DNA of 31,596 nucleotides, taken from IMG/VR virus record IMGVR_UViG_2565956719_000008; one strand, given 5' to 3'. Each line of letters begins with the position of its first letter. Positions within the stretch are counted from its first letter, which is position 1. Below, one piece after another: positions 3,238-8,701 of the stretch. The stretch comes from a virus (Duplodnaviria > Heunggongvirae > Uroviricota > Caudoviricetes > Peduoviridae). The notes below the pieces were generated by a model, which worked only from the letters and a program-made list of their open reading frames with translations, was not told the origin of the DNA and searched no databases. The position numbers and the translations under genes were made by a program.

Positions 3238-3509
3238 GTATTCGTATTGAAATTGGCGAACGTTATGTCGTTACCAGTGACAGCTTTCAGTTTATTCTCC
3301 ACGAGAAAAAGAGAGCGGAAAGCGGTAAAAACGCCGGTCAGGAATGGCTGGCGGTGGTTGGTTATTACCCGAAATTAGGCCAGCTCGTTTCCGGCCTGAT
3401 GCATCACGATATTCTGACCGGAAGCGCAAAATCTTTTGCTGATTTAAACGCGCAGGTTGAGCAACTCAGCAAGCGTTGTTCAGAGGCTTTTGGCTCATAT
3501 GGCCGTTAA
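3234..3509 (+). CDS. Hypothetical early protein (P2 orf83 position)
   Basis: 91 aa; ATG 3234 with GGAG SD; overlaps neighbouring genes at both ends. Confidence 0.6.
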   Translation: MSIRIEIGERYVVTSDSFQFILHEKKRAESGKNAGQEWLAVVGYYPKLGQLVSGLMHHDILTGSAKSFADLNAQVEQLSKRCSEAFGSYGR

Positions 3510-5784
3510 AGCCTCCGGGCGTTTTGTCCCTCCGTCAGCATTTACCGCAGGCACCGGTAAGGCGTTTACCGGTGCTTATGCATGGAACGCGCCACGCGAG
3601 GCTGTCGGGCGCGAAAGACCTCTTACACGTGACGAGATGCGTCAGGTGCAAGGTGTTTTATCCACGATTAACCGCCTGCCTTACTTTTTGCGCTCGCTGT
3701 TTACTTCACGCTATGACTACATCCGGCGCAATAAAAGCCCGGTGCACGGGTTTTATTTCCTCACATCTACTTTTCAGCGTCGTTTATGGCCGCGCATTGA
3801 GCGTGTGAATCAGCGCCATGAAATGAACACCGACGCGTCGTTGCTGTTTCTGGCAGAGCGTGACCACTATGCGCGCCTGCCGGGAATGAATGACAAGGAG
3901 CTGAAAAAGTTTGCCGCCCGTATCTCATCGCAGCTTTTCATGATGTATGAGGAACTCTGCGATGCATGGGTTGATGCGCATGGTGAAAAAGAATCGCTGT
4001 TTACGGATGAGGCGCAGGCTCACCTGTATGGTCATGTTGCTGGCGCTGCACGTGCTTTCAATATTTCCCCGCTCTACTGGAAAAAATACCGTAAAGGACA
4101 GATGACCACGAGGCAGGCATATTCTGCCATTGCCCGTCTGTTTAACGATGAGTGGTGGATTAGTCAGCTTAAAGGCCAGCGTATGCGCTGGCATGAGGCG
4201 TTACTGATTGCTGTCGGGGAGGTCAATAAAGACCGTTCTCCTTATGCCAGTAAACATGCCATTCGTGATGTGCGTGCACGCCGCCAGGCAAATCTGGAAT
4301 TTCTTAAATCGTGTGATCTCGAAAACAGGGAAACAGGCGAGCGCATCGACCTTATCAGTAAGGTGATGGGCAGTATTTCTAATCCTGAAATTCGCCGGAT
4401 GGAGCTGATGAACACCATTGCCGGTATTGAGCGTTACGCCGCCGCAGAGGGTGATGTGGGGATGTTTATCACGCTGACCGCGCCGTCAAAGTATCACCCG
4501 ACACGTCAGGTTGGAAAAGGCGAAAGTAAAACCGTCCAGCTTAATCACGGCTGGAATGATGAGGCATTTAATCCAAAGGATGCGCAGCGTTATCTCTGCC
4601 GTATCTGGAGCCTGATGCGCACGGCATTCAAGGATAATGATTTACAGGTCTACGGTTTGCGAGTCGTCGAGCCACACCACGACGGAACGCCGCACTGGCA
4701 TATGATGCTTTTTTGTAATCCACGCCAGCGTAACCAGATTATCGAAATCATGCGTCGCTATGCGCTCAAAGAGGATGGCGACGAAAGAGGAGCCGCGCGA
4801 AACCGTTTTCAGGCAAAACACCTTAACCGGGGCGGTGCTGCGGGATATATCGCGAAATACATTTCAAAAAATATCGACGGCTATGCACTGGATGGTCAGC
4901 TCGATAACGATACCGGCAGGCCGCTGAAAGACACTGCCGCGGCTGTTACCGCATGGGCGTCAACGTGGCGCATTCCGCAATTTAAAACGGTTGGCCTGCC
5001 GACAATGGGGGCTTACCGTGAACTACGCAAATTGCCTCGCGGCGTCAGCATTGCTGATGAGTTTGACGAGCGCGTCGAGGCTGCACGCGCCGCCGCAGAC
5101 AGTGGCGATTTTGCGTTGTATATCAGCGCGCAGGGTGGGGCAAATGTCCCGCGCGATTGTCAGACTGTCAGGGTCGCCCGTAGCCCGTCGGATGACGTTA
5201 ACGAGTACGAGGAAGAAGTCGAGAGAGTGGTCGGCATTTACGCGCCGCATCTCGGCGCGCGTCATATTCATATCACCAGAACGACGGACTGGCGCATTGT
5301 GCCGAAAGTTCCGGTCGTTGAGCCTTTGACTTTAAAAAGCGGCATCGCCGCGCCTCGGAGTCCTGTCAATAACTGTGGAAAGCTCACTGGTGGTGATACT
5401 TCGTTACCGGCTCCCACACCTTCTGAGCACGCCGCCGCAGTGCTTAATCTGGTTGATGACGGTGTTATCGAATGGAATGACCCGGAGGTCGTGAGGGCGC
5501 TCAGGGGCGCATTAAAACACGACCTGAGAACACCAAACCGTCAGCAAAGAAGCGGAAGCCCGTTAAAAGCGCATGAAATAGCGCCATCGGCCAGACTGAC
5601 CCGGTCGGAACGAATGCAAATTACCCGTATCCGCGTTGACCTTGCTCAGAACGGTATCAGGCCGCAGCGATGGGAGCTTGAGGCGCTGGTGCGTGGCGCG
5701 ACCGTAAATTATGACGGGAAAAAATTCACGTATCCGGTCGCTGATGAGTGGCCGGGATTCTCAACAGTAATGGAGTGGACATGA
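3499..5784 (+). CDS. A: Replication initiation endonuclease A (HUH rolling-circle initiator, P2 gpA-like)
   Basis: 761 aa from ATG 3499 (MAVKASGRF...), which matches the P2 gpA N-terminus as I recall it. ORF-track start 3457 is TTG. HUH motif (TPHWHMM) and active-site tyrosine motif (YIAKYISK) are present. Confidence 0.9.
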   Translation: MAVKASGRFVPPSAFTAGTGKAFTGAYAWNAPREAVGRERPLTRDEMRQVQGVLSTINRLPYFLRSLFTSRYDYIRRNKSPVHGFYFLTSTFQRRLWPRIERVNQRHEMNTDASLLFLAERDHYARLPGMNDKELKKFAARISSQLFMMYEELCDAWVDAHGEKESLFTDEAQAHLYGHVAGAARAFNISPLYWKKYRKGQMTTRQAYSAIARLFNDEWWISQLKGQRMRWHEALLIAVGEVNKDRSPYASKHAIRDVRARRQANLEFLKSCDLENRETGERIDLISKVMGSISNPEIRRMELMNTIAGIERYAAAEGDVGMFITLTAPSKYHPTRQVGKGESKTVQLNHGWNDEAFNPKDAQRYLCRIWSLMRTAFKDNDLQVYGLRVVEPHHDGTPHWHMMLFCNPRQRNQIIEIMRRYALKEDGDERGAARNRFQAKHLNRGGAAGYIAKYISKNIDGYALDGQLDNDTGRPLKDTAAAVTAWASTWRIPQFKTVGLPTMGAYRELRKLPRGVSIADEFDERVEAARAAADSGDFALYISAQGGANVPRDCQTVRVARSPSDDVNEYEEEVERVVGIYAPHLGARHIHITRTTDWRIVPKVPVVEPLTLKSGIAAPRSPVNNCGKLTGGDTSLPAPTPSEHAAAVLNLVDDGVIEWNDPEVVRALRGALKHDLRTPNRQQRSGSPLKAHEIAPSARLTRSERMQITRIRVDLAQNGIRPQRWELEALVRGATVNYDGKKFTYPVADEWPGFSTVMEWT

Positions 5785-6236
5785 TGGCAAAAATTCACGA
5801 GGTAAAGCTGCACGCAAAATATTTTGACCTTGTGCTGGAAGGAAAGAAACGCGCAGAGTTTCGGAAAAATGACCGTAATTATGAGCGCGGGGACACGTTG
5901 ATTTTGCATGAATGGGCGCAGGGTGTGTATACGGGGCGAAAGGTTGAAGCCCGGATAACAGATGTTACTGACCTGTCAGACTGGCTGGAAGATTATGTCT
6001 TGCTAAGTATTGAGCTGCTTAATACAGGCGCATATGAGATTGTGAACTGGAAAGAACTTAGTGAGCGTGGTCTGGTATTCAGAATTAATCATGAAATTAT
6101 GCATCAGCTCGGCCTTGCTGTTATGTATGCACCAGAGACGGGGATGTCTGGCGGGGCAATGGTTGCCACGGATGGAGCATGGAACTATTCAGATGAACAG
6201 ATTGAGCGTGCAAAGCAAAACGGGTGGCTTGGATAA
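5781..6236 (+). CDS. ASCH/DUF3850-like domain protein (predicted RNA-binding PUA-like fold) with uncharacterised C-terminal half
   Basis: ATG 5781 overlaps the A stop (ATGA); GGAG SD 5 nt upstream. N-terminal segment KIHEVKLHAKYFDLVLEGKKRAEFRKNDRNYERGDTLILHEW resembles the DUF3850/ASCH signature from memory. Confidence 0.6.
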   Translation: MMAKIHEVKLHAKYFDLVLEGKKRAEFRKNDRNYERGDTLILHEWAQGVYTGRKVEARITDVTDLSDWLEDYVLLSIELLNTGAYEIVNWKELSERGLVFRINHEIMHQLGLAVMYAPETGMSGGAMVATDGAWNYSDEQIERAKQNGWLG

Positions 6237-6442
6237 TGCACAGAATACCGGGCGAGATACCGCAACATAACACTAAAAATATCAAGCTGATGGCTATTGT
6301 TCACCGTCTACAGCAGATTATGGTCAACGAAAATCTGACGCCTGACGAGCTGGTCGGGTGTGCCGAAATAGTCCGGGATAATTACGGGCGGCTTAATTAT
6401 ATCCGTCAGTCCAGAGTTGCTCCACCGCCACGCAGACTATAG
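6236..6442 (+). CDS. Small hypothetical protein
   Basis: 68 aa from ATG 6236 (ORF-track start 6224 is GTG); overlaps the upstream stop (TAATG). Weak SD. Confidence 0.4.
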   Translation: MHRIPGEIPQHNTKNIKLMAIVHRLQQIMVNENLTPDELVGCAEIVRDNYGRLNYIRQSRVAPPPRRL

Positions 6443-6657
6443 AAAACGCCGTCAGTCTTGAAACTTGTTTTCAGGGCTGGCGGGGTTGAACAACGAGCAT
6501 CGCGAGGCGTTAGTGGTATTGGAACCAATGAGAAAACAAAAAACTCAACGCCTCCCCTCATGTTTGATGGTATGGTCTTGTTTTTAGGTAATGAAGCTTT
6601 ATTCGGGTGACGTGTCTAATATAGCTTTCTGCATGACGTTAGAATGATGATGAGATC

Positions 6658-7260
6658 ATGTTATTAATGAATGAGAAAAAAAGACAAAAATATCTAAAGA
6701 TAATGTTTGAATGTCAAAAGCGACTTGAAACACTTCATGCTTTATCATCTGGAAGGATTGATGGCATTTATTTTCAAGTGTTAATTGAAATGGAGGCGTT
6801 GCAGCTTAGGAAGCTACTAGAGCTCATTGCATTTTCATCTCTAATTTCACATGAAAAAGCATACGAGAAGGTTACAAAGAAGATTGATGGTGTATGGAAG
6901 GCGAAGAATATATTTAAAGAGTTGGAAAAGATAAACCCTAACTTTTATCCAGTACCAATATCAGGAGTAACCAAAACGGGCTGGACGAAACTAACGGGAG
7001 GTTTTTTGACGAAAAAACAGTTTATCAAGCTATATGATGAATGCTCAAAACATATTCACGTAAGGAACCCATATCGGGTTAGGGAAAACTCGCTGGGGTT
7101 TCATAAAAAAGTTCCAGAGTATTTATCAAGAATTGAAACTCTACTGTTAAAGCACATTGTTTCTCTTGCCGGGAATGAAGAACTTCTTCTTGTAGATGTG
7201 CCTCATTATGAAGACTCTGTAACAGCTATAAAAATGAGCCACCTCGTTAAAATGGGGTGA
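6658..7260 (+). CDS. AT-rich cargo ORF of unknown function in the tin/old hotspot position (candidate defence/abortive-infection protein)
   Basis: 200 aa, Lys-rich, visibly AT-rich compared with flanking phage genes. Sits between the replication module and cos, where P2 carries tin and old. No Walker A motif, so not Old-like. Contains a weak R-x6-H pattern (RENSLGFH). Confidence 0.7.
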   Translation: MLLMNEKKRQKYLKIMFECQKRLETLHALSSGRIDGIYFQVLIEMEALQLRKLLELIAFSSLISHEKAYEKVTKKIDGVWKAKNIFKELEKINPNFYPVPISGVTKTGWTKLTGGFLTKKQFIKLYDECSKHIHVRNPYRVRENSLGFHKKVPEYLSRIETLLLKHIVSLAGNEELLLVDVPHYEDSVTAIKMSHLVKMG

Positions 7261-7296
7261 AAAATAAGCAATAAATAGTCGATTCTAGTGAACGGT

Positions 7297-7320
7297 CGGC
7301 TATTTTTAGCCGGATTTTTA
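7297..7320 (+). terminator. Weak intrinsic terminator candidate downstream of the cargo ORF
   Basis: Hairpin CGGCTA-tttt-TAGCCG (7297..7312) followed by GATTTTTA. Confidence 0.3.
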
Positions 7321-7478
7321 TACTGTTTCCCCTTAATTACAGTCGTTTCTATTCATGCATGTGCTATTGCATCGAATTGCATGCGTTTTCATCCCCTGTT
7401 GCTTATGAGCGTTGTCAGTGCTGGCGCATTCTCGGTATGTTCATGCAACTGCATCAAAATCGCCCCATGAAGCGGGCG

Positions 7479-7497
7479 GGCGAGGCGGGGAAAGCAC
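7479..7497. other. cos site (19-nt cohesive-end sequence, P2 type)
   Basis: GGCGAGGCGGGGAAAGCAC matches the P2 cohesive-end sequence as I recall it. Located immediately beyond the Q (portal) end of the packaging module, as in P2. Confidence 0.8.
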
Positions 7498-7639
7498 TGC
7501 GCGCTGGCGGTGGTGCTGATTTTATTTTTTCAGCGTCTGAGCGCGTCGTGAAGGCGCTTAGTCTGCCCGTTGAGGCGTTGGTGTGTCTGCGGGGTGTTTT
7601 GTGCTGTGGTGAGCGTGTGAGGGCGTGATGACGGGGTGT

Positions 7640-7661
7640 AAAAAAGCCGCCCGCAGGCGGC
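7640..7661 (-). terminator. Rho-independent terminator downstream of Q (end of the P-Q operon)
   Basis: On the minus strand, GCCGCC-tgcg-GGCGGC followed by TTTTTT (plus-strand AAAAAA at 7640..7645), just past the Q stop at 7667. Confidence 0.6.
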
Positions 7662-7666
7662 GATGT

Positions 7667-8701
7667 TCAGCCGTTGTCAGTGTCCAGTGAGTAGTTTTTA
7701 AAGCGGATGACCTCCTGACCGAGCCAGCCGTTTATCTCGCGGATCCTGTCCTGTAGCGGGATAAGCTCATTGCGGACAAAGACCTTTGCCACTTTCTCAA
7801 TATCACCCAGCGACCCGACGTTCTCCGGCTTGCCGCCCATCAACTGAAAGGGGATGCGGTGCGCGTCCAGCAGGTCTGCGGCACTGGCTTTTTTGATATT
7901 AAAAAAATCGTCCTTCGTCGCCACTTCACTGAGCGGGATAATTTTAATGCCGTCGGCTTTTCCCTGTGGGGCATAGAGAAACAGGTTTTTAAAGTTGTTG
8001 CGGCCTTTCGACTTCACCATGTTTTCGCGAAGCATTTCGATATCGTTGCGATCCTGCACGGCATCGGTAACGTACATGATGTATCCGGCATGTGCGCCGT
8101 TTTCGTAATACTTGCGGCGGAACAGCGTGGCCGACTCATTCAGCCAGGCAGAGTTAAGGGCGCTGAGATATTCCGGCAGGCCGTACAGCTCCTGATTAAT
8201 ATCGGGCTCCAGCAGGTGAAACACGGAACCGGGCGCGAAGGCTGTCGGCTCGTTGAAGGACGGCACCCACCAGTAAACATCCTCCTCCACGCCACGGCGG
8301 GTATATTTTGCCGGTGAGGTTTCCAGTCTGATGACCTTACCGGTGGTGCTGTAACGCTTTTCCAGAAACGCATTACCGAACACCAGAAAATCCAGCACAA
8401 AGCGGCTGAAATCCTGCTGGGAAAGCCACGGGTGCGGGATAAACGTTGAAGCCAGAATATTACGTTTGACGTAAATCGGTGAGCTGTGATGCACGGCAGC
8501 ACGCAGACTTTTTGCCAGACCGGTAAAGCTGACCGGTGGCTCATACCATCTGCCGTTACTGATGCATTCGACGTAATCCAGAATGTCACGGCGGTCGAGT
8601 ACCGGCACTGGCTCACCAAAGGTGAATGCCTCCATTTTCGGGGCGCTGGCGGTCATTTTTTTTGCCGCAGGTTGCTGTGTTTTCCCTTTTTTCTTGCTCA
8701 T
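7667..8701 (-). CDS. Q: Portal protein (P2 gpQ-like)
   Basis: 344 aa; ATG at 8701..8699 overlapping the P stop. N-terminus MSKKKGKT... and length match P2 Q as recalled. Confidence 0.9.
   Translation of the reverse strand: MSKKKGKTQQPAAKKMTASAPKMEAFTFGEPVPVLDRRDILDYVECISNGRWYEPPVSFTGLAKSLRAAVHHSSPIYVKRNILASTFIPHPWLSQQDFSRFVLDFLVFGNAFLEKRYSTTGKVIRLETSPAKYTRRGVEEDVYWWVPSFNEPTAFAPGSVFHLLEPDINQELYGLPEYLSALNSAWLNESATLFRRKYYENGAHAGYIMYVTDAVQDRNDIEMLRENMVKSKGRNNFKNLFLYAPQGKADGIKIIPLSEVATKDDFFNIKKASAADLLDAHRIPFQLMGGKPENVGSLGDIEKVAKVFVRNELIPLQDRIREINGWLGQEVIRFKNYSLDTDNG

Follow-up and report, generated by a model that had tools for sequence, protein, structure and literature searches.

The DNA analyzed here, referred to below as the window, is the 31,596-nucleotide virus record IMGVR_UViG_2565956719_000008 of IMG/VR (Peduoviridae). 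The window is a P2-like (Peduovirus) prophage, and two of its open reading frames (ORFs), herein named ORF1 and ORF2, come last in the rightward early (replication) operon. They follow the replication gene A (3499-5784; plus strand, as are both ORFs), which encodes the rolling-circle initiator of 761 amino acids (aa) and equals gpA of P2 and Wphi in length and position. The Enterobacter homologue is matched by the Pfam family Phage_GPA. The stop codon of A (TGA, 5782-5784) shares bases with the start codon of ORF1 (ATG, 5781-5783) as ATGA, and a Shine-Dalgarno sequence GGAG can be read at 5772-5775, within the 3' end of A and 5 nt upstream of this start codon. Both observations bear out the translational coupling to A proposed in the sequence-only reading, an earlier inspection of the same DNA made without database searches. 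ORF1 occupies positions 5781-6236, including its stop codon TAA (6234-6236), and encodes a two-domain DUF3850/ASCH plus DUF7415 protein. The earlier inspection had placed this ORF correctly, but its length is 151 aa; the 152 aa given before included the stop codon. ORF2 encodes a predicted helical-hairpin protein of 68 aa (6236-6442; ATG 6236-6238, TAG 6440-6442) and overlaps the stop codon of ORF1 by one base, as TAATG.

ORF1 is matched over its full length by phrog_1812 (E 4e-81) and in residues 1-84 also by phrog_986, and ORF2 is matched over its full length by phrog_11386 (E 2e-41). Homologues of both ORFs are present in other genera. Comparison of ORF1 with its Enterobacter homologue gave pN of 0.29 and pS of 0.78. 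For ORF2, dN/dS against a close relative is 0.19, and pN and pS against gp37 of phage PSP3 are 0.14 and 0.77, values that identify this ORF as being under purifying selection. Because of the full-length PHROG matches, the homologues in other genera, and pN values far below pS, both ORFs are identified as genuine genes rather than chance ORFs, and the overlapping 68-aa ORF noticed earlier is thereby confirmed as a real gene. Gene A of the window and of Enterobacter differ with pN of 0.15, so ORF1 evolves about twice as fast as A. The GC content is 44-50% in both ORFs, 54-61% in gene A, and 33-39% in the cargo region downstream; the "normal GC" of the sequence-only reading is approximately correct when compared with E. 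coli, although both ORFs fall below the phage core. Sequences identical to the two ORFs already carry annotations in hundreds of genomes; in RefSeq, many E. coli genomes have them as "DUF3850 domain-containing protein" and "hypothetical protein" beside "replication endonuclease". The pair is thus already known, with RefSeq, Pfam, and PHROGs between them cataloguing both ORFs.

The window aligns with phage P2 DNA at 95.5% identity from gene A into P2 orf91, and this alignment ends at window position ~6004, which corresponds to codon 75 of ORF1. The P2 Orf91 protein (NP_046796.1), annotated in RefSeq as a DUF3850 protein, has the same ATGA overlap with A; it is nearly identical to ORF1 through residue 75 and continues with an unrelated tail of 34 residues. 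Since position, ATGA overlap, and DNA identity agree, ORF1 is, as judged from these alignments, the orthologue of P2 orf91 for residues 1-75. An entry for P2 orf91 has existed ever since the sequencing of P2. In the main, the present analysis corrects the record: ORF1 is P2's own orf91 in its intact form. The sequence-only reading had given no equivalents in P2, which is incorrect; besides P2 orf91, equivalents exist as Wphi orf91/orf92 and PSP3 gp37. In the Wphi record (locus L002; NC_005056, 3882-4550), orf91 and orf92 are fragments resulting from several frameshifts. The copy in the E. coli W chromosome matches the window over 734 nt with no net indel, so that errors in sequencing probably account for the frameshifts recorded for Wphi. 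In P2_AC1, the match to the window finishes at the end of A.

The N-terminal domain of ORF1 (aa 5-77; 5793-6011) is assigned by Pfam to DUF3850 (PF12961; E 2.9e-18, 66.3 bits against a cut-off of 22.9) as well as to ASCH (PF04266; E 4.4e-11, 43.8 bits against a cut-off of 21.2). The ASCH octapeptide, defined as G-x-K-x-x-[ETS]-x-R (PMC9599836), is intact in ORF1 as G21-K22-K23-R24-A25-E26-F27-R28 and is followed by an N-D-R motif; K23 and R28 do not vary among the two-domain homologues of ORF1. The sole solved relative by sequence is the Protein Data Bank (PDB) entry 3IUW (E 2.4e-13). The AlphaFold2 model of ORF1 (mean pLDDT 85.8) shows this domain as a PUA-like beta-barrel and was matched by Foldseek to 3IUW with E 2e-8, TM 0.90, rmsd of 1.4 Å, and 40% identity; significant Foldseek matches to PDB structures were confined to the N-terminal domain. 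The agreement of the above-threshold Pfam matches, the octapeptide, and the predicted fold bears out the DUF3850/ASCH assignment made in the sequence-only reading, for which a Pfam search, structure prediction, and Foldseek had been proposed as checks.

The C-terminal half of ORF1, previously described as unrecognised, belongs to the Pfam family DUF7415 (PF24187), which matches aa 87-129 with E 2.4e-14 and 53.7 bits against a cut-off of 27. From the model and the family alignment, the domain extends over aa 86-151 (6036-6233), with a predicted helix-helix-strand-strand-helix topology. Residues N103, H108, and G111 of ORF1 correspond to the three invariant columns in an alignment of 50 DUF7415 sequences. 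No solved structure was found for this domain either by a profile search of PDB sequences or by a Foldseek fold search. The segment H104-E-I-M-H108 resembles the HExxH motif of zincin metalloproteases; this candidate function was rejected, with the first His being R, K, T, N, or Y in other members of the family.

The DUF7415 family is small, comprising only 185 clusters (50% identity) at E <= 0.001 in an exhaustive search. A tblastn search found DUF7415 in 896 phage records, mostly of T4-like and T5-like phages of enterobacteria. Its stand-alone form has 70-90 residues. In fused form, DUF7415 was found with dATP/dGTP pyrophosphohydrolase (3 proteins), an Rv2179c-like 3'-5' exoribonuclease, thymidylate kinase, DUF3850, and an Acb2/Tad1 hairpin (protein cluster P0086). 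The genomic contexts of the family also include replication and nucleotide-supply genes. In T4-like phages, DUF7415 is located between nrdD and nrdG, and in T5-like phages between nrdD and a helicase gene. In P2-like elements having a Toprim primase instead of A (a Lelliottia prophage and contig L004), the DUF7415 gene directly follows or overlaps the replication gene, and in Brenneria it is located upstream of A in the early operon, between an orf82-like gene and A.

Among these proteins, P0064 (188 aa; L004 2597-3163, a Logan SRR7803155 contig) combines an ORF2-like N-terminus (34% identity to ORF2, pairwise E 9e-8), a ClpX-type zinc finger with a match under the Pfam cut-off, and DUF7415. 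Its gene directly follows the Toprim primase gene and precedes a Gp49/HigB-like gene. This domain composition hints at a possible Rosetta-stone link between ORF2 and DUF7415. Two more variants were observed. In a Brenneria populi prophage (L027 2680-4004), a DUF7415 protein of 104 aa and the Cronobacter-type 135-aa proteins carry their extra domain in opposite orders. The gene for the 104-aa protein and the following 337-aa ORF, at a guess a candidate PAPS-reductase-like protein, are both inserted in the early operon between A and the orf82-like gene, which encodes a zinc-finger protein. The E. coli protein P0038 (134 aa) begins with ~80 residues from the start of gpA, joined directly to DUF7415; this chimera points to a prophage that lost most of A and the DUF3850 domain through an internal deletion.

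ORF2 had no matches in Pfam, NCBIfam, or PADLOC. Its homologues, among them PSP3 gp37 and the Wphi "orf92", form 195 protein clusters of 50-81 residues distributed across Enterobacteriaceae. They share a conserved core, IKLMAIVHRLQQIMVNENLTPDELVGCAEIVRDNY, followed by a variable tail that mostly ends in PPPRR. The model of ORF2 (pLDDT 80.8) is a two-helix hairpin formed by residues 10-31 and 36-61. A Foldseek search of this model against the PDB was empty, and a profile search of PDB sequences gave only noise with E > 0.8. Truncated 51-aa versions of this family in E. coli RefSeq genomes (for example, NZ_CP141736.1 1541325-1541582) are named "meiotically up-regulated 80 protein", a name that seems to have been transferred spuriously.

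Directly after the stop codon of ORF2 begins a conserved non-coding element of ~75 nt (6443-6514, plus strand), recognized by folding, conservation, and a homology border. Its plus-strand RNA is predicted to form a hairpin of 18 bp (arms 6445-6463 and 6469-6487; -30.6 kcal/mol, z -3.8), and the minus strand folds no better than shuffled controls. Across 11 diverse copies of the hairpin, 95.4% of cells are paired, three of the pairs carry changes in both partners, and there are several conserved G-U pairs. Phage 186 has the element as well, where it stands after orf97 and before the annotated terminator t95b; further copies were found in Enterobacter prophages and, as a pair bracketing gp37, in PSP3. 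No Rfam match was found within 5700-7700.

About 330 of 418 E. coli genomes align with the window over 5781-6514 and no further, and the ORF that follows in the window is common to only 21 of the 418. By these alignments, the element is the sharp left border of a variable cargo slot. Because homology stops at 6514 and the cargo is rarely shared, the layout of this region is gene A, a fixed block of ORF1, ORF2, and the hairpin, an interchangeable cargo slot, cos, and gene Q. The hotspot thus has an internal structure, with the fixed block standing ahead of a sharply bounded slot. The bracketing arrangement of the two copies in PSP3 suggests that the element serves as a cassette border or a recombination site.

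The cargo slot of the window contains an ORF of 200 aa (6658-7260, plus strand; GC 33-39%) that matches phrog_13799 and is followed by a terminator-like hairpin (7296-7313). Nothing was found for this ORF in Pfam, NCBIfam, or PADLOC, and it is a candidate for uncharacterised hotspot cargo. Only 21 of the complete E. coli genomes carry it, together with Yersinia phage vB_YpM_50 and one Escherichia sp. locus (L009).

Of 5426 complete E. coli genomes, 1683 have the 3' part of A, and 417 of these also have ORF1/ORF2 (~25% of the A carriers). When one genome per species was sampled, ORF1 was found in only one of the 61 loci with a gpA relative, that of Escherichia sp., which also has ORF2 and the same cargo; ORF2 without ORF1 was found after A in Buttiauxella, Scandinavium, and Rahnella. 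In Enterobacter and Leclercia prophages, a two-domain homologue of ORF1 (154 aa, 49-57% identical) is located 5 nt after A, and ORF2 is absent. Because the two ORFs are patchily distributed among A-carrying genomes and each is found without the other, they are accessory, dispensable, and separable genes. A core replication gene of P2-like phages, which was another candidate, is rejected by this distribution (417 of 1683 E. coli genomes; 1 of 61 species loci). The survey thus upholds the accessory status proposed in the sequence-only reading: the pair is not conserved in all P2-like phages, and a DUF3850/ASCH match is present. About 8% of complete E. coli genomes carry the pair, so its function, once found, would apply widely.

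The translational coupling to A leads to an expectation of early lytic expression: from the gene layout, ORF1 and ORF2 are probably produced alongside the replication proteins during lytic growth and not in the lysogen. In P2, by comparison, old and tin are independently transcribed, unlike the A-coupled ORF1 and ORF2. The ASCH cleft of ORF1 (K23/E26/R28) would probably bind a nucleic acid or a nucleoside or nucleotide ligand. The DUF7415 domain most likely self-associates or docks onto a partner, or may itself be a small ligand-binding unit; the role of such a partner may be filled by ORF2. The likely purpose would be to lift a barrier to phage replication raised by the host or by a competitor, through counter-defence or through nucleotide or nucleic-acid housekeeping, and would probably lie outside both the core steps of replication and the protection of the lysogen. 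Taken together, the domains and the gene layout point to an early-expressed, dispensable accessory that combines ligand binding by ASCH with docking by DUF7415 and removes a barrier to phage replication. We regard this reading as a credible working proposal that falls somewhat short of probable.

Several observations weigh against this proposal and its counter-defence component. The Glu of the ASCH motif (E26) is lost in two Enterobacter-type homologues, P0025 and P0026. As counted from the sequence, ORF1 is net acidic, which is unusual for a general nucleic-acid binder. An obligate partnership of ORF1 and ORF2 was considered and rejected: ORF1 occurs alone in Enterobacter, and ORF2 alone in PSP3, Rahnella, Buttiauxella, and Scandinavium. 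For ORF1 and ORF2, no defence-family match was found in PADLOC and no known anti-defence domain in Pfam. The fusion of DUF7415 to a sponge domain is represented by a single protein cluster among the 68 DUF7415 proteins scanned, and the DUF7415 domain of this cluster has a Pfam score under the curated cut-off, with E 1.8e-9 in a profile search. The literature search found nothing on DUF7415 and no functional study of DUF3850, orf91, phage ASCH proteins, or the ORF2 family. NCBIfam gave no matches, and DUF3850 and DUF7415 are both absent from the supplements of Tal et al. (2025).

The closest rival explanation is that of a plain replication accessory, in which ORF1 binds DNA or RNA at the rolling-circle fork or docks on the replisome or the dNTP-supply machinery, thereby aiding the replication started by A, with assistance from ORF2. 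The translational coupling to A fits this explanation, as does the placement of DUF7415 genes in other P2-like elements, directly behind or overlapping a non-homologous Toprim primase gene. The same can be said of the nrd genes adjoining DUF7415, of its fusions to thymidylate kinase and dNTP pyrophosphohydrolase, and of the attachment of DUF3850 to a ParB CTPase in phages (PNAS 2025; bioRxiv 10.1101/2025.10.10.680097). However, ~75% of the A-carrying E. coli genomes and almost all P2-like prophages of other genera lack the pair, the copy with which P2 replicates breaks off after DUF3850, and both the acidic charge of ORF1 and its rate of evolution, about twice that of A, are unexpected for such a component. 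We consider a plain replication accessory rather unlikely, though it is the foremost of the rivals. A patchy, dispensable, and fast-evolving gene fits an accessory of an arms race better than a component of replication, and an early-expressed role in counter-defence or in nucleotide or nucleic-acid handling is accordingly favoured over it, as a tentative choice that we hold with limited confidence. An enzymatic role, with ORF1 acting on host RNA or modified nucleosides as a YqfB-like N4-acylcytidine amidohydrolase or a ZmASCH-like ribonuclease, would agree with the place of ORF1 in the ASCH superfamily, with its intact octapeptide G-x-K-x-x-E-x-R, and with the appearance of YqfB (9kyf, E 0.014) and ZmASCH (5y6b, E 0.22) in the Foldseek results. 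Enzymes of the YqfB type use the triad Lys21/Thr24/Glu74, in which the Thr at position six of the motif is the nucleophile (PMC9599836). This position is occupied by Glu26 in ORF1, and the YqfB-type amidohydrolase was rejected on the basis of this motif alignment alone. The similarity to YqfB and ZmASCH is marginal (10-11% identity; 11% for 9kyf), ORF1 has the minimal DUF3850 form of ~75 residues, lacking the C-terminal part that bears Glu74 of YqfB, and the Glu of the motif is itself lost in some homologues, all of which makes an enzyme improbable.

Two further explanations concern the surroundings of the ORFs and their integrity. ORF1, ORF2, and the 200-aa low-GC ORF at 6658-7260 could together form a defence system protecting the lysogen. 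All three are located in the gpA-gpQ interval, which was treated as a defence hotspot of P2 by Rousset et al. (2022), and the tables of that study list gene arrangements of the type "DUF3850/ASCH + hypothetical + ..." in this hotspot. A terminator-like site was sought between ORF2 and the cargo ORF and none was found, which would also agree with a single system. Nevertheless, the same block of ORF1, ORF2, and the element stands beside many different cargos, with the present one in 21 of 418 E. coli genomes; the ORFs differ from the cargo in GC content (44-50% against 33-39%) and are coupled to the lytic early operon; and PADLOC is empty for ORF1, ORF2, and the cargo ORF. The three-gene system was rejected as highly improbable. 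Another possibility, that ORF1 and ORF2 are remnants with no present function, draws on the common occurrence of truncated or frameshifted variants, such as the P2-type 109-aa form, a 106-aa DUF7415-only form, and chimeras. Against such decay, clusters of the full-length 151-aa form dominate (126 + 510 + 662 member sequences), purifying selection is seen across genera, the invariant residues are kept, and the frameshifts of Wphi are probably sequencing errors; we give decay hardly any credence.

The early-expressed accessory role preferred here has a more specific variant, prompted by protein cluster P0086. The gene for this fusion of DUF7415 and Acb2/Tad1 is located directly after a gene for a Lockin sponge. 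This one fusion gives circumstantial support to the anti-defence or RNA-modification role that the sequence-only reading had put forward as possible; the YqfB-type form of RNA modification is disfavoured by the Glu at the nucleophile position. Lockin has been shown experimentally to be a sponge against Thoeris (bioRxiv 10.1101/2025.07.12.664507). On a JGI metagenome contig (Ga0308317_1420575; L070 4165-5959), the gene order is nrdA, nrdB, a small ORF, Lockin, the DUF7415-Acb2/Tad1 fusion, and phosphoribosyltransferase, and by its gene content this locus looks like an anti-defence gene cluster. In the specific variant, DUF7415, alone or with an ORF2-type hairpin, would be a hitherto uncharacterised module of phages for counter-defence, acting for instance as a sponge or inhibitor of nucleotide immune signals, which P2-like phages would deliver together with the replication proteins. 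ASCH would then provide a second ligand site, making the protein two-headed, like the Tad2-Acb4 fusions. We view this variant as speculative and doubtful. No sponge domain was found by Pfam in ORF1 or ORF2 themselves, only in a distant DUF7415 relative fused to one. Nonetheless, DUF7415 is small, phage-restricted, and portable, and its partners are almost all nucleotide-handling proteins, one being an immune-signal sponge domain, which makes it a cheap candidate for anti-defence screening. To what was already on record for this pair, the analysis thus adds the correction concerning orf91, the fixed block with a hairpin bordering the hotspot, and, as a lead for anti-defence screens, the network of DUF7415 fusions.

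Among the relatives of the window, P2 has a copy of orf91 that breaks off exactly where the DUF3850 domain ends; DUF7415, ORF2, and the hairpin element are missing, and tin and old are found there instead. A DUF3850 assignment has been noted for the third gene of old-tin (Rousset et al., 2022). Wphi gp91, a DUF3850 protein, occupies the same place after A, and the Wphi DNA is ~95% identical to that of the window but frameshifted. The PSP3 gp37 and Wphi "orf92" region belongs to the ORF2 family (~80% identical), and its stop codon likewise abuts the conserved hairpin element. In PSP3, however, gp37 follows tumA/tumB (DinI-like) rather than a DUF3850 gene, and the two copies of the element bracket it.

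For the N-terminal domain, the nearest known structure, 3IUW (an "activating signal cointegrator" of Enterococcus faecalis, deposited as a DUF3850 structural-genomics entry), shares with ORF1 the fold, the family, and the motif K-x-x-E-x-R-x-N-D-R. Unlike the two-domain ORF1, it is a bacterial single-domain protein of 83 residues without DUF7415; no function for it was reported in any of the sources found. E. coli YqfB, Zymomonas ZmASCH, and the ASCH domain of human TRIP4 have the same PUA-like barrel and the octapeptide G-x-K-x-x-[ETS]-x-R. Their similarity to ORF1 is marginal (E 0.014 to 0.4), the domain of ORF1 is shorter, and in place of the nucleophilic Thr of YqfB it has Glu. DUF3850 is also shared with the ParB-CTPase-DUF3850 fusions of phages, in which it is the attached domain and which are enriched in prophages (PNAS 2025, PMC12704722; bioRxiv 10.1101/2025.10.10.680097). 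In ORF1, by contrast, the partner of DUF3850 is DUF7415 and not a ParB CTPase, and there is no neighbouring parA. Compared with the sponges Acb2/Tad1, Lockin, and Sequestin, ORF1 itself has no sponge domain, and the resemblance lies in the one DUF7415 fusion cluster, P0086. Sequestin was itself found through its fusion to known sponges, and the idea that a domain fused to a sponge may share its role was validated experimentally in that case (bioRxiv 10.1101/2025.07.12.664507). Before its characterisation, Sequestin was a small, phage-restricted, and often stand-alone domain, as DUF7415 is.

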